A DNA stretch of 62,574 nt, counting the filler, from Diploschistes diacapsis (taxonomy: Eukaryota): the NCBI GenBank assembly GCA_023645945.1. It is 7 parts of 7 records of this genome, joined end to end, with 100 filler letters (N's around TTAATTAATTAA, not from the genome) between each part and the next. Parts side by side here need not be neighbours in the genome. Positions count along the whole stretch, not along the records: positions 5,732 to 33,961 come from JALAIB010000151.1; 6 more parts are not named here. One strand, written 5' to 3'. Shown here in pieces: positions 21,573 to 28,501 of the stretch. Under the pieces are notes generated by a model. It ran no database searches and had not been told where the DNA came from. It worked only from the letters and a program-made list of their open reading frames with translations. Positions within the stretch are counted from its first letter, which is position 1. The number at the start of each line of letters is the position of its first letter. The position numbers and the translations under genes are program-made.

Positions 21573-22610
21573 ATGGCACAAACGACTGCGAATCACCACG
21601 ACGAGCTGCCCAAACGACCGAAAGGTAAGCTGAGCTATCACGATGAATGCGAAATGCGAAATTTCGGAGAATACTGATTGTGAGTACCCAGGCATTCTCA
21701 AGAACTCCGCCTCCTACCAGAACGAATCTACATCCCCCACTTCCACCACCGCCTATCCAGAACCCAACTCCCGTGCTTCCTCTATAGTAGACGGCATTGC
21801 TCCACCTCTCGATCGGCACGTATCCGACAAGGACCTTACATTACAAAACACCATCCAGAATGCCGGCCATCGCCGCTCCTCCTTCTCTGTTGCCCGCGCT
21901 ACGTTCGCTCGACGGCGCTCCTCCCAAAGTACTGGTGTAGGAGATACTGCAGGAGCGGCAGAAGAAAACCCGCGCCTGAAATGGGACGAGGCAAACTTGT
22001 ATCTGACAGAGCAAGAGAAAACCTCGACGATGAAAATCAATGAGCCGAAGACGCCATACGCAAAGCAATACGATCCGATAGAGGACGAGGAGGAATTGCA
22101 CAAGCTGGATGCGGAGGAGCTCATGGTCGATGAGCTGGATCAAGCGAGGGAGCTGGGTCAGAGTCCCGGTCAGGGACAGAAAGACAAGAATTCGCTGGGG
22201 CGCACATCTGACATCCCCGGCCTCGAACTAGGGGAGCCGGCAGAGGAGCTACCCGATGAGGGAGGTGTAGAGATGAAAAGGAGCAACAGCGGGCGGGAGA
22301 AACAGGTGGTTGTTGACAAACCAGAAGAGGGGCACGGACACGGCGAGGACGAGGAGGTGGGTATGAGCCGGGAGGAGAAGGAAAAGCACAGGATGTTTGA
22401 GGAGAGGAGGAAGAAGCACTACGAGATGAAGGATATCAAGGGACTCCTGGGGTAAGGCTGCCCCCGAAAGCTAGCTGTGTATCGCGAGCATCCTAGGCTG
22501 ACTACTATCAATACAGACACCCCGAGGTCTTTGATGCCATGGACGAAGAAGACGATGCGCCAGAGCCTCCGCTACCTATCCGCTCCGGTAACATGGTTAA
22601 TGGCTCATAG
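21573..22610 (+). CDS. GLC8: Protein phosphatase 1 inhibitor-2 (IPP-2/Glc8 family)
   Basis: Exons 21573-21624, 21692-22451, 22517-22610. I-2 motifs [35 protein letters not shown]. Confidence 0.9.
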
Positions 22611-23027: not shown

Positions 23028-23081
23028 TATATATCAAAACAACGCATCAAAACTCCCACAACTTGAACCTTGGCCTAACGG
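23028..23081 (+). promoter_or_regulatory. TATA-like element (23028-23034) and Pol III A-box-like TGGCCTAACGG (23071-23081)
   Basis: TATATAT lies ~30 nt upstream of the folded region. The A-box matches TRGCNNARYGG. Confidence 0.45.
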
Positions 23082-23250
23082 TCAAGTCTTGAGGGTTACA
23101 GTCCTGCCAGTATTACCAGTCTTGTGCCTTTGTGCTTAATGGCCGTTTGAAAACCCTACGAATGTCTTAACATCTAGCGATTAGTAGTCGGTCCCAAGAC
23201 ATATGGTTTGAAAACTCGTACTACAACCCTCATTCGAGTTGGATTTTTTT
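23059..23250 (+). ncRNA. Candidate structured ncRNA of unknown family, probably RNA polymerase III-transcribed
   Basis: Nested helices 23059-67/23233-41 (9 bp), 23069-75/23080-86 (7 bp), 23090-97/23225-32 (8 bp), 23157-61/23216-20, 23162-68/23196-202. G-U pairs favour the + strand. T7 immediately follows the closing helix. No ORF. Confidence 0.55.
23244..23250 (+). terminator. T7 tract, putative Pol III terminator (alternatively an Sm-site-like AUUUUUUUGG)
   Basis: Lies directly 3' of the terminal helix of the folded element. Confidence 0.45.
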
Positions 23251-23272
23251 GGAGGATGGATGGATGCACTGC

Positions 23273-23283
23273 GGTTCGAGTCC
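23273..23283 (+). promoter_or_regulatory. Pol III B-box (GGTTCGAGTCC) not in a canonical tRNA
   Basis: Perfect GGTTCGANTCC consensus, followed by T8 at 23300-23307. Confidence 0.6.
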
Positions 23284-24387
23284 GGAAGGGTTCATCCGGT
23301 TTTTTTTGATTTCATTTATCTTGTTCAATTGCTTTCTCAGTTTGAGATGATCGATAGCATGTATGTAGTAAGTCTTTTCAACCATATGCTCTATCTACAA
23401 TGAAATCACAGGAAGAGCTAACTAAAACTCTAATACAAGCTTCATCATGAGGTCAAGTTTTGCGCTAGATAGTTCATTTCTTCAGCCCTGAATGCTGTCG
23501 TTATGCCCGTGTTAACCCCATATTTTATAGCCCGCATTGGTATTAGGTATTAGGTTCGAAATCGGGCAGGGCCACAGCCGTCGACATCATACCTTCTAGT
23601 AATAACAACTCAAACCCTCAAGAAGTCCTCTCCCACCGTCCTGTCCAGTTCCCCTGGATCTTGCACGAGTAAGACTCGACTGCCAAAACCAACTCAAGAG
23701 ATCACTCGTCGATCCTTTTGAGTCATTGGTCTTATGTATGCTCCCGTGGTAGAGCACCGCCATCACCTGCAGAGAAGCATATGCCTGGAAAGCTTTCAAA
23801 GCAAGACGCTACTGCTTCAGCTCTTCTTACCATTTTCGAGTCTTTTCTTTCTTTTCGTCGAGGTCGGTTCAGATATTCTACTAGCCTTGGACGGTTCGCG
23901 TTCCGTAATACAGAAGACCGCACCCAGATCCTACCATACCCAAGGTTGGCCAGCCGGCATGCAGAGCACTTCTTTTTCTTGATTTGAATTGTGAAGTGCT
24001 GACCGGAATGCTGACGCTTTCCTCAGATAAGAGATCGTCAGCCTTGCTGGTGCCAATATCCAGAGATAGCGCTTTTCCTCTCGCTACGCTTCTGCGTTTT
24101 CGGCCTCGGCTTCCCTGCAATCGAAGTGCATCGACCAATAACCTCTATTCCAACCATCCATATGTCCGTCCAAGGCTTCTTTCCAACTGACTGACCTATT
24201 CCGAAATTGTTTCTATCCTGGGCCGAAGCCTTGTGTCCAGTGGCTTCTTGGGCCATTGATAACCAACTCTTCTCCCATACTCTGAGTTATCCCACTGGAG
24301 CCTCTGTTACACTGTCTAGCGGCCCGTGCGACTAATTTTGAGCTCACTGAGTAGTGTACACCTCTGCTTGAGTCGCACATTCTGCAA

Positions 24388-25476
24388 ATGGCGGACATCA
24401 GTCCTTACCAGGCTCCTCATCGGAAACCAGTAGGAGCTGTAGTCCAGCCATCAAACAAAATGCCATTGAACATTGCGCCTACTAGACAGTACCCAACCCC
24501 AGCGCACACCCATTCTCGAACCATATCCTCAAACATCTTTCCTGCGCCTACACATTCGCAACCTCAGAATACGTATTCTCAAGCTGTCAACCATAGCCGA
24601 AGATCAGCATCAACAGCCACAGTCTCGACGATGTCGAGCCAGGGCGGTCCGAACCGCTCCCCTTCCGCCGTATCCATTACATTGAGACGAAACACTTCGG
24701 TCCGCTCCGCTCAATCAGTCACACCCACAAGCTATGTTGCTTTGATGAGGAAACAAAAAGCGACGGTTTGGTGCGATCGAGCACAGTACGAAGACCCGAG
24801 GCTCGCTGCGGCGGCTAAGCAGGCGAAGATGAGGGCAACATTGGAGGTTGTGGGAGGCCCTCAGCCGAGAACAAGTACGAGCACGAGCGCTGGTGGTTCG
24901 ACTACGGGCATGAGAAGCAAAATCACCAACAGACATCATGGTGCAGCAAAGGCAGTCGGTTACTCTGCAAACCTGCTGGGAACTTCGGGTGTGCCCATGA
25001 GATTGAGCGCAAGTGAAGTCGGCGACGAAGAAAACAGTGGGGATGATGCACACAGCCAAGACTTCCGAGGGCAGCGGTCCGGAAGTGGACGCAGTTCGCT
25101 CAGGAATAGCGGTAGACTCAGTACGCTAAACCAGCGGCAACCAGGACGGCTAAGTACAGGAAGTACGCCTCCAAGCGGACAGGGCTCAAGTCCTGCCGAG
25201 CCCACCCAAGATACAGACACCCCTGTCGCTGGTACGTTCAAGGAAGGGGCCGTGCCGGAGGATTATTTCCAGCATCCGCCAGGGAATGGAAGCAGCGGTA
25301 GTTCTGGCGAGAGCGAGTCCAAGTTTGGCAATGTTGGAGACATGCAGGCGCCGAAAGCTTCAAACGAAGGGAAGGGAGTGGATGATCTTAGTCGAAGGGG
25401 CAGCGTGGATGAGAGAGCAACGACGATGCGACATGCCGTCCGGCTGTTTGTTGCGAATCCGGACTTGAGCGATTGA
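24388..25476 (+). CDS. Conserved fungal hypothetical protein, Ser/Gly-rich
   Basis: Single-exon 362-aa ORF with conserved-looking blocks SYVALMRKQKATVWCDRAQ, VPMRLSASEV, RRGSVDER and C-terminal LFVANPD. Confidence 0.8.
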   Translation: MADISPYQAPHRKPVGAVVQPSNKMPLNIAPTRQYPTPAHTHSRTISSNIFPAPTHSQPQNTYSQAVNHSRRSASTATVSTMSSQGGPNRSPSAVSITLRRNTSVRSAQSVTPTSYVALMRKQKATVWCDRAQYEDPRLAAAAKQAKMRATLEVVGGPQPRTSTSTSAGGSTTGMRSKITNRHHGAAKAVGYSANLLGTSGVPMRLSASEVGDEENSGDDAHSQDFRGQRSGSGRSSLRNSGRLSTLNQRQPGRLSTGSTPPSGQGSSPAEPTQDTDTPVAGTFKEGAVPEDYFQHPPGNGSSGSSGESESKFGNVGDMQAPKASNEGKGVDDLSRRGSVDERATTMRHAVRLFVANPDLSD

Positions 25477-26141
25477 GGCTGGTTCAGTCGGACAGCTCTC
25501 AATGACTTTTCAGGATCCGTGTGCGGGGAGATTGGAGAAGATATTGGGGCTATTACTATTTCGATTACCCCTCAAGAAACGAAGCTTTTGCTTTACTGAA
25601 AACGTGCGAGCCACTGGCGGCTATGGCTCACTTTAGGTCCCCTCACAGTAACAACGTATCGATAACTCAAGTGAGGCCATTGCATGTCCTGCCGTTCTCC
25701 AATGACACATTATGGTCTTGGGACTTGTACGTAATGCATACCCACCTGGATCTGCCCTGCTCAGCCATTTTGATTGTAGAAGATTGATAGCTCGTTGGAC
25801 TTCGAGGTTGCTCTTCAGCCATGCTCGACTACTGTGGTACGACGTTAGGATCTGTAAATTTAATTCCTAAGCGAAAGCGAAGGACTATATTATTTTTATT
25901 GGCTGGTATTTTAGCACCTGGTATATGAATCCATAAAATGAAGCTAGAACCTTGGCGTCGGCTTCTTCAACGTCCGCGTTGCTTTGATTCCTACCACGAT
26001 AAACGAGTTTTGTTTGACGAAATGCCTCGTAAATTCGCATGTGACATTTAAGATGGTGTTTTGAGCATCAGACTTCTCAGGAGCTACTTCTACAAGAGGT
26101 ATTCGTAGGTTCTAACGTTGGCAAACCCTCTGCCCGTAAGA

Positions 26142-28501
26142 ATGGGCGCCCAGGACGACCTCTCGGCTTCAAGCGTCCTCGTCGATCCAGCTACCGACCT
26201 CGAGCGATGGAGGTTGTTGGATGAAAGGGGTAGGCAGACGTGGCATTACCTGCAGTCAGATGAGGAGATTGAGGCCTGGCCACAGACTCTCGCTGATCGG
26301 CATCATCTTGGCCTCCCTCTTGTACAAGCCTTTCGAAATTCTGTCGTGTTCACGTGACTGATATCTGGTATCAGGATCTTCCAAAATATGCAAAACCATC
26401 AACCCCGTCGGAGGCTGCTCGGAACGCCCTTAGATTCTTCTCCAGCTTTCAGCTGCCGCCGGGTAATTGGGCCTGCGAGTATGGAGGGCCCATGTTTCTA
26501 CTCCCTGGCCTTGTCGTGACTTGGTACGTGACCGAAACCCCTATATCGGAGCCTATTCGAACGGAGATCAAGCGGTATCTATACGCGCGACAGCATCCTG
26601 AGGATGGCGGCTGGGGTCTTCATATTGAAGGAGAGAGTAGCGTCTTTGGGACAGCCATGAACTACGTTGTCATGCGGATCCTGGGAGCCAGTGAGGAGGA
26701 CCCTCGTATGGTAAAGGCAAGAGGAACCTTGCATAAACTGGGCGGTGCGCTCCAAGGACCTCATTGGGCAAAATTTTGGCTGAGTGTTCTGGGTGTGATG
26801 GATTGGAGTGTTGTCAATCCAGTTCCTCCGGATCTATGGTACACTGTTTGATAAGTTTGAGGATCTTGTGTAGTGCTCACAAATTTTTTTAGGCTTATGC
26901 CTAATTGGGTCCCTTTCCATCCATGGAGATGGTGGATCCATATGCGTCAGGTCTACCTTCCCATGTCCTATATCTGGTCGCGGAAGTTTCAATACCCTCT
27001 AACACCGCTTACGCGCTCACTCAGAAACGAACTCTTTGTAGAACCCTACTCGTCCATCAACTTCGCTTCACACCGCAACACAATCGCTTCGACTGACAAT
27101 TATCATCCAAAAACTGCAGTCCTACGTTCTCTTAATTGGCTCTTAGTCAACGTTTATAATCCGTATCTACGGTTGAACTTTCTGCAGAAACGATCCGAAG
27201 AATGGGCTTATGAGCTGATACGACGCGAAGACGAGAATACTGAGTATGCAAACTTGGGACCGGTCAATGCTCCTATGAACTTGTTGGCCTGCTATATCCA
27301 TGACGGCCCAGATGCGGAAACAGTCCAGCGCCACCGTGATCGAATGCACGATTTCCTCTGGATGAAGCACGAAGGTATGTTGATGAATGGTACCAACGGC
27401 GTCCAGACTTGGGACACTGCATTCACCATCCAAGCCGTAACTGAAGCAGGATTTGCGGAGGACGAAGAATTTAGACCTGTGTTAAGAAAGACTCTCGAGT
27501 TCCTGGATGAACAACAGATTCGGGAAGATTGCCCAGACATGGACATCTGTTACCGTCAACAAAGAAAGGGCGCCTGGGCTTTCAGTGAGAAGGACCAAGG
27601 CTACGCTGTCAGCGACACTACAGCGGAAGGGCTCAAGTCAGTGCTTCTGCTACAGGCCCTACCCGGATATCCTAAGCTACTCTCTGATGCTCGGCTACGG
27701 GATACGGTGGATACTCTTCTTACTATGCAAAACCCTTCTGGCGGTTTCGCATCCTACGAACTTCAGAGAGGGTCTGAGTATATGGAACTCTTAAACGCAG
27801 CAGAAGTCTTTGGGCGAATCATGGTAGAATATGATTATCCCGAATGCACAACATCTGTCGTAATAGGCCTCTCGCAATTCAAGAAGTACGATTCGTCATA
27901 CCGTGCTGATGACATAAACAGGACTATTGAACGTGCTCTTGGATATATCCATCACGCCCAAAGACCAGATGGCTTCTGGTACGGTGCGTGGGGCATTTGC
28001 TTCACTTATGCCACCATGTTCGCTACAGAATCACTCAAGTCCGTGGGCGAAGACTACTCTAATTCTCTGTACGCTCGGAAAGCTTGCGAGGCTCTACTTC
28101 GGAAGCAAAGGAGTGATGGTGGTTGGGGCGAAAGCTACAAGAGCTGCGAGATTTCTGAGTGGGTGGAACATCCTGATGGAAGTCAGGTTGTAAACACCTG
28201 CTGGGCGCTTCTTGCCCTCATGTACGCCGAATGTCCAGATGGTGAAGCCATCGGAAAGGGAATAAAGCTTCTGATGGAACGGCAGCAGAGCGATGGAAGC
28301 TGGCTGCAGGAGGGGATCGAGGGGGTTTTCAATAAGAGCTGGCAAGTTTGCATCTCTTTCCTCTTCTTGTGCTTCTCCTAGTTCAAAGTGATTTTACTAA
28401 TCCTTTCCAGTATGATATCCTATCCGAACTACAAGTACTATTTTCCGATTAAGACTCTCGGCATATTTGCAAAGAAGTATAGAGACCCGATGCTGGCATA
28501 G
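26142..28501 (+). CDS. ERG7: Lanosterol synthase (oxidosqualene cyclase)
   Basis: Exons 26142-26321, 26375-26838, 26893-28341, 28411-28501. The last intron is GC-AG. Motifs GRQTW, YGGPMFLLPG, DGGWGLHIEG, MNGTNGVQTWD, QGYAVSDTTAE, QW repeats, GVFNKSCMISYPNY. The T in GTNG and Q..V before the catalytic D are lanosterol-type rather than cycloartenol-type. Confidence 0.96.

Follow-up and report, generated by a model that had tools for sequence, protein, structure and literature searches.

The intergenic DNA between GLC8 and the next gene of Diploschistes diacapsis (assembly GCA_023645945.1) raises the question of what kind of gene, if any, is located there, since a preliminary description had proposed an unassigned, structured RNA gene with a U6-style Pol III promoter at this place. 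The stretch of DNA analysed, referred to here as the window, comprises 62,574 nucleotides, and positions count along it unless another locus is named. The placement between two genes was borne out. The upstream neighbour on the + strand is a GLC8/IPP-2 gene (21634..22610), recognised by Pfam family PF04979 (E 1.2e-18), whose last exon and stop were predicted from splice signals and whose modelled 5' end is provisional. The downstream neighbour, P0001 (24388..25476, + strand), encodes an uncharacterised conserved fungal protein that matches no Pfam family and has 1436 homologs, the best named ones from lichen-forming ascomycetes. The gene after P0001, in the region 24388-28381 and named from its translation, is presumably lanosterol synthase. 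The element sits about 450 nt past the predicted GLC8/IPP-2 stop and 1.1 kb ahead of P0001, and, as had been claimed, it contains no open reading frame: none of at least 80 amino acids lies over it, and the longest stop-free frame touching it has 63 codons. The assembly comprises 29 Mb in 4361 contigs and contains two nuclear SSU rDNAs (L184 and L185, on G000:C168 and C4261) with only 83% identity to each other, as well as two U4 matches and five U1-like matches. Because of the two SSU rDNAs, more than one organism is likely to be mixed in the assembly, and some of the tRNA genes used below for training may therefore belong to another organism.

The promoter signals were evaluated with box matrices trained on 27 of the genome's own tRNA genes. 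These were selected from 50 matches to RF00005 in the genome, of which 14 on one mitochondrion-like contig and 9 that were repeat-like, degenerate or truncated had been dropped. On the + strand, the TATA element TATATAT (23028..23034) starts 43/41 nt ahead of the first T of the A-box (23071..23081), which corresponds to tRNA position 8. Among the 27 tRNA genes, a TATA element starts 35-45 nt before U8 in 20 and at 41 or 43 nt in 11. The A-box is of tRNA grade, with a score of 12.2 compared to a leave-one-out median of 12.4, and is equalled or beaten at 14 of 123,680 window positions. The B-box (23273..23283, + strand) is the sole perfect match in the window and, with a score of 17.6, the best of the 123,680 positions. 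It follows the A-box at a distance of 202 nt, with a run of seven T in between (T7, 23244..23250), the predicted main terminator, which ends 22 nt before the B-box. TATA element, A-box, T7 and B-box are thus all present as the preliminary description had reported, while a second run of eight T (T8, 23300..23307, + strand) had been overlooked. In 26 of the 27 tRNA genes, a run of at least four T begins 0-13 nt past the gene end, and seven T are an effective terminator of yeast Pol III (PMC5356446).

A strict pattern of TATA element plus A-box occurs at two sites in the window, and only at the element is it accompanied by a B-box within 250 nt. Genome-wide, the perfect B-box is found 42 times, compared to 43 times for a control word, a run of five T followed by a B-box lies at six distinct places, three of which are copies of a tRNA-like repeat, and long A-B pattern pairs amount to six matches versus three in controls. 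The perfect B-box alone is therefore not rare in the genome, and it is the combination of signals that is unusual. What is found corresponds to a Pol III type 2 gene with the layout of SNR6: a 5' A-box, a B-box about 200 bp away beyond the terminator, a TATA element some 30 nt upstream and oligo-T. The term U6-style promoter is apt as far as the SNR6-like layout is concerned, but it fits the budding-yeast gene only. The genome's own U6 gene (L002:183-340) carries its B-box-like word in a spliceosomal-type intron of about 55 nt, as in fission yeast, and the B-box-like word of its SRP gene is internal, so the layout is not common to these two genes. The promoter is more aptly classed with the tRNA-type promoters of this genome. 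A weaker B-box-like word is located at 23555-23565, 280 nt past the perfect one, and short segments similar to the P1 and P3 words described below come after it at 23600-45; the covariance model gave no match there.

From the promoter geometry, a transcript of about 190 nt is predicted (23058..23250, + strand), starting at 23049-23058 and ending at T7. The three outer helices proposed earlier hold up in the pair probabilities of the + strand. In P1, 23059..23067 pairs with 23233-23241 (mean pair probability 0.93); P2 is a hairpin of 7 bp with a 4-nt loop (23069..23086, 0.99), overlapping the A-box and a D-arm-like segment; in P3, 23090..23097 pairs with 23225-23232 (0.96). The 3' strands of P3 and P1 are contiguous (23225..23241) and form a 17-nt closing strand with pair probabilities above 0.9 that stops 2 nt short of T7. 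Both non-Watson-Crick pairs in P1-P3 are G-U on the + strand, in line with the earlier observation. The inner helices did not hold: TACGA/TCGTA has a pair probability of 0.00 and ATGTCTT/AAGACAT of 0.01-0.02, and the fold that contains them lies 8.3 kcal/mol above the minimum. Instead, the model supports an inner stem of 23115-24 with 23195-207 (0.95-0.97) as the core of a 126-nt insert (23101..23226, + strand) that is predicted to form an irregular rod, interrupted by many internal loops and with a longest unbroken helix on one side of 8-10 bp. Also overlooked had been the 10-mer GTTTGAAAAC, which occurs at 23145..23154 on the + strand and again at 23206-23215. The two copies can pair around a tandem G.A in a fold 4 kcal/mol above the minimum. 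A repeated 10-mer arises in 35 of 5000 shuffles, but also in 24 of 327 real window tiles, whereas this particular pair occurs at one place in the genome only. We consider the doubled 10-mer a candidate protein-binding site.

The predicted stability has a z-score of -2.50 on the + strand (2 of 200 shuffles as stable) and of -1.56 on the - strand (12 of 200). When 117 runs of at least six T in 170 kb of DNA from the same genome were ranked, the element came fourth by z and shared first place for long-range closing pairs. With this z-score and rank, the fold taken alone is suggestive only; it is notable among such sites, not extreme. The top of the fold ranking is held by the segment 50400-50830 of the window, which is very AT-rich, contains many T runs and resembles a mutated repeat. 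The 5' strand of P1 also has alternative partners: extended by 23068-69, it makes up an inverted B-box-like word that could form 9 bp with the B-box or 8 bp with 23287-94.

The element belongs to no known family that could be recognised, which agrees with the earlier view. Rfam 15 gave no match at gathering score in the window and none that was credible up to E 10 in the region, so that the strong Rfam hit named beforehand as a possible objection did not appear. The same is true of many dispersed copies, since one match at E 10 was obtained in the genome by a word-based DNA search that diverged copies could escape; pattern searches of the genome likewise gave a single copy, with all patterns unique, and a test for SINE, MITE or TRIM elements detected no dispersed copies in the genome. 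Genes for U6, SRP, MRP, RNase P, telomerase RNA, U3, U4 and U5, as well as the U1-like genes, whose matches score under the gathering threshold, are located on other contigs, and the U2 and 5S rRNA models have no match at the element. Several identities were considered and rejected. The genome's own telomerase RNA gene lies elsewhere, Vault RNA and Y RNA have no Rfam match at the element, a match to HPnc0260 (E 2.7, minus strand) is a chance match of the B-box word, the ies6 motif as presented in the text of PMC5640933 does not fit, and a spliceosomal or group I intron in the insert is contradicted by the absence, by eye, of YAG or a terminal G at the required place. A guide RNA of the H/ACA or C/D type was rejected because complementarity to rRNA does not rise above shuffles: pocket and antisense matches to the two rDNAs were reached by 5 of 40 and 18 of 40 shuffles. 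An ACA at 23223-25 lies 15 nt past the inner stem, yet it is internal rather than terminal. The motif scores, the spacing, the single copy and the housekeeping RNAs encoded elsewhere support a Pol III unit of SNR6-like layout that belongs to no Rfam family.

For the search for relatives, the P0001 protein was used in a metagenome scan, in which 80 of 240 loci, amounting to 806 kb and many of them near-identical, were analysed (L008-L087). At least 3 kb of upstream sequence is available in 51 of the 80. Within the DNA analysed, ERG7 adjoins P0001 in 25 of the 80 and GLC8 in none, which shows only a loss of the link to GLC8 in these fungi, whose relationship is more remote (39-55% protein identity). 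In these 80 loci, the element was found neither by nhmmer nor by a single-sequence covariance model, which gave one match with an E value of 2.7; this search says nothing about conservation elsewhere in those fungal genomes. A weak nhmmer match in L018/L023 (E 2) appeared to retain P3 but turned out to be the 3' end of ERG7 read on the opposite strand, and a match in L025 is coding sequence of ERG7. On 165 kb of DNA from the same genome, the covariance model recovered the element itself only. In prokaryotic and viral collections, the element pattern occurred 0 and 0 times and GLC8 0 times, a blank that was expected.

ARAGORN and RF00005 call no tRNA at the natural locus, but the claim that nothing there resembles one goes too far, since a split tRNA frame can be traced, albeit with a reservation given below. 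In a reading that is new in this analysis, the locus can be described as a tRNA frame that two inserts interrupt. With position 8 set at 23071, the next 18 nt form a D-arm with one mismatch. Positions 27-31 are then occupied by 23090-94, pairing with 23228-32, which places P3 in the anticodon-stem register according to sequence and ARAGORN drawing, and the 126-nt insert would be located at the canonical tRNA intron site. A T-arm-like hairpin with one mismatch (23270..23286, + strand) encloses the B-box, 202 nt from the A-box, and is followed by an acceptor-like 3' strand (23287..23294, + strand), which forms 8 bp with 23064-71, one nt off the acceptor register, and ends 5 nt before T8. An equally good pairing in this register is found for 52 of 61,928 window 10-mers and 11 of 3,534 intergenic ones, and an 8-bp helix in 14 and 19 of 5000 controls, a chance of 0.001-0.004 that is optimistic, as are the other p-values of the frame, because the frame was noticed after looking. 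In the same register, the genome's own SRP gene has 5 bp and its U6 gene 3 bp, and the five other long A-B pattern matches (four at 185-204 nt, one at 53) have 2-3 bp. Once both inserts are cut out in silico, a tRNA is called by ARAGORN up to a stringency of 107, which 52 and 46 of 5000 controls also reach; at default stringency, 135 and 119 of 1000 controls pass.

What weakens the tRNA reading is that the word containing the acceptor-like strand nearly repeats the B-box, a degree of similarity that 85 of 61,773 window words attain. The 3' strand of P1 is a weaker third B-box-like copy, and the inverted copy at the 5' end is able to base-pair with each of the three. Local duplication could explain five of the eight acceptor pairs and would be an equally good source of this part of the pairing. 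Moreover, in a read-through RNA the tRNA fold has a pair probability of 0 and is 9-19 kcal/mol less stable than P1/P2. Compared by eye with 36 of the genome's own tRNA-like matches, a set that lacks several isotypes, the stems of the frame resemble none. We place the tRNA ancestry of the locus at near even odds. With regard to tRNA genes elsewhere in the assembly, one has an intron of about 100 nt (L160, G000:C3557:33050-33222), and two tRNA-like genes, L175 and L202, which by eye resemble Leu and Pro genes, are absent from the RF00005 list, which means that the tRNA inventory is incomplete. In addition, a dispersed tRNA-like repeat family whose A- and B-boxes are intact and whose members have a tail in common, either a SINE head or a Helenus-like LTR, is present at the G000 loci L093, L094, L096, L104, L111, L119, L165, L167, L168 and L171, and further at L195-L197, L199 and L205. 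The list of fungi in the Helenus report names only basidiomycetes, as far as its accessible text goes (PMC10886601).

On this basis, a Pol III transcription unit at the locus is likely. It would probably make a structured RNA of no assigned family and, apart from its SNR6-like geometry, be a unit of the kind represented by ZOD1 or RNA170. Whether it is, more specifically, a single-copy Pol III gene with a tRNA-type promoter that was probably built on a former tRNA gene, as a ZOD1-like unit, we consider evenly balanced. In the proposed mechanism, TFIIIC would bind the A-box and the B-box 202 nt apart and place TFIIIB on the TATA element, and Pol III would start near 23049-58 and mostly stop at T7, so that the B-box would remain outside the main product. 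The RNA of about 190 nt would have its ends joined by P1, P2 as a side hairpin, an irregular rod of P3 and the inner stem, and an oligo-U tail, and its predicted shape is a three-way junction plus rod. With paired ends and an oligo-U end, such an RNA would be bound by La and resistant to exonucleases. Since a role as a guide, as a tRNA or in housekeeping is excluded or unlikely, our best guess is a protein-binding RNA that would act, if at all, through the rod and the doubled 10-mer, and neither as a tRNA nor as an antisense guide.

Several other explanations compete with such a gene. An unlikely one is a TFIIIC-bound boundary site similar to ETC sites or a decaying tRNA pseudogene, in which a transcript would be incidental and the fold a result of local duplications and inversions of the B-box word. 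The three direct and one inverted B-box-like copies do account for P1 and the acceptor pairing, the z-score is modest, no homolog was found in the 80 of 240 fungal loci, and yeast offers the ETC sites and the weakly transcribed ZOD1 as examples (PMC5356446). However, TATA element, A-box, B-box and terminator are all intact and of tRNA grade, and P3 and the inner stem, which are not B-box words, bring about a closing just ahead of T7. Mere coincidence of motifs in ordinary intergenic DNA or the 3' flank of GLC8 is quite improbable: the genome-wide counts of perfect B-boxes, no higher than the control, and of long A-B pairs, six versus three in controls, speak for it, but it demands the TATA spacing, the A-box, the window-best B-box, T7, T8 and the 17-nt closing strand all together. 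A functional tRNA gene interrupted by an intron at the canonical site and by another in the variable loop, which would be expressed by reading through T7 to T8, could place all four arms and a 5-nt trailer, and the tRNA gene at L160 demonstrates that an intron of about 100 nt occurs in this genome. Nevertheless, with T7 inside the gene and a normal Val(UAC) gene elsewhere (L158), this is very unlikely and the least probable of the explanations; a G at position 32, mismatches in the D- and T-stems, the shifted acceptor, the less stable tRNA fold and the silence of ARAGORN and RF00005 on the natural locus also speak against it.

Two explanations that keep a Pol III product but give it a different identity are both doubtful. 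The RNA could be the primary transcript of a microRNA-like RNA, cut from the rod by Dicer as for milR-1 to milR-4 of Neurospora, where the major milRNAs are described as transcribed by Pol III, with TATA-like elements and with ends in poly-T, and one has a tRNA-containing precursor (PMC3547838). Size and rod shape are compatible with this, but the many internal loops and the short helices of the rod are not what it calls for, and milR-1 has neither A- nor B-box. About equally doubtful is a diverged member of a described fungal RNA that is missing from or poorly modelled in Rfam, such as the "conserved intergenic structure 2" that Gao et al. (2021) described or one of the several Afu RNAs that are unassigned in Joechl et al. 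(2008; PMC2377427). The former is given as standalone and Pezizomycotina-wide, with 223 sequences from 207 species, a mean length of 144 nt and no H box noted (PMC8216456). Rfam 15 offers no match up to E 10, the lengths differ, and, in a comparison made by description only, a Pol III link has 0 occurrences in the main text of PMC8216456.

A Pol III gene with an orphan product would be of interest because, apart from tRNA, 5S, U6 and SRP, little has been mapped of what Pol III transcribes in filamentous ascomycetes; the literature searched, which included few subscription papers, contained neither a survey of these transcripts nor an account of a comparable gene from filamentous fungi or lichen fungi. 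A predicted stable RNA of no known family, under a full promoter, offers a tangible object of study. If the tRNA frame is ancestral, the locus would illustrate one way in which a tRNA gene can turn into a gene whose B-box lies outside it. In a more far-reaching and rather unlikely version, the element would be a conserved, undescribed Pol III RNA of lichen fungi or the wider Pezizomycotina that was born from a tRNA gene: its intron would have become the rod, a new terminator would have left the T-arm as a pure promoter, the 5' end would pair either with the terminator-proximal strand or with the downstream tRNA half, and the doubled 10-mer would form a protein-binding helix with tandem G.A. 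This would amount to a new RNP family and a snapshot of the origin of an SNR6-type promoter.

Among known systems, tRNA-derived SINE heads and Helenus LTRs resemble the element in their tRNA-like boxes, which are kept while the cloverleaf decays (PMC10886601). However, the element is single copy, its boxes are 202 nt apart, no target-site duplication is visible by eye, and it is unrelated to the genome's own tRNA-like repeat family. The precursors of milR-1 to milR-4 share with it Pol III, a TATA-like element, an end at a T-run, a stem-loop and, for milR-4, a link to a tRNA (PMC3547838), where for the element these features are read from the sequence; it differs by its complete A/B promoter and less regular rod. 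With SNR6, it has in common the upstream TATA element, the internal A-box and the B-box past the terminator, at an A-B spacing of about 200 bp in SNR6 (PMC5855946) and of 202 nt here, whereas it contains no U6 sequence and its B-box is just 22 nt beyond the terminator. The S. cerevisiae ZOD1 and YGR033C loci are old tRNA genes (tRNA-Ile and tRNA-Arg) that are still bound by Pol III, and together with RNA170 they resemble the element as single-copy Pol III units with tRNA-type boxes, no tRNA product and traces of a tRNA gene (PMC5356446), where for the element the Pol III unit is predicted and the traces are putative. In contrast to them, the element has a frame stretched by two inserts, a terminator before the B-box and a stable predicted three-way junction plus rod; the comparison with ZOD1 is one of copy number, boxes and putative tRNA-gene traces.
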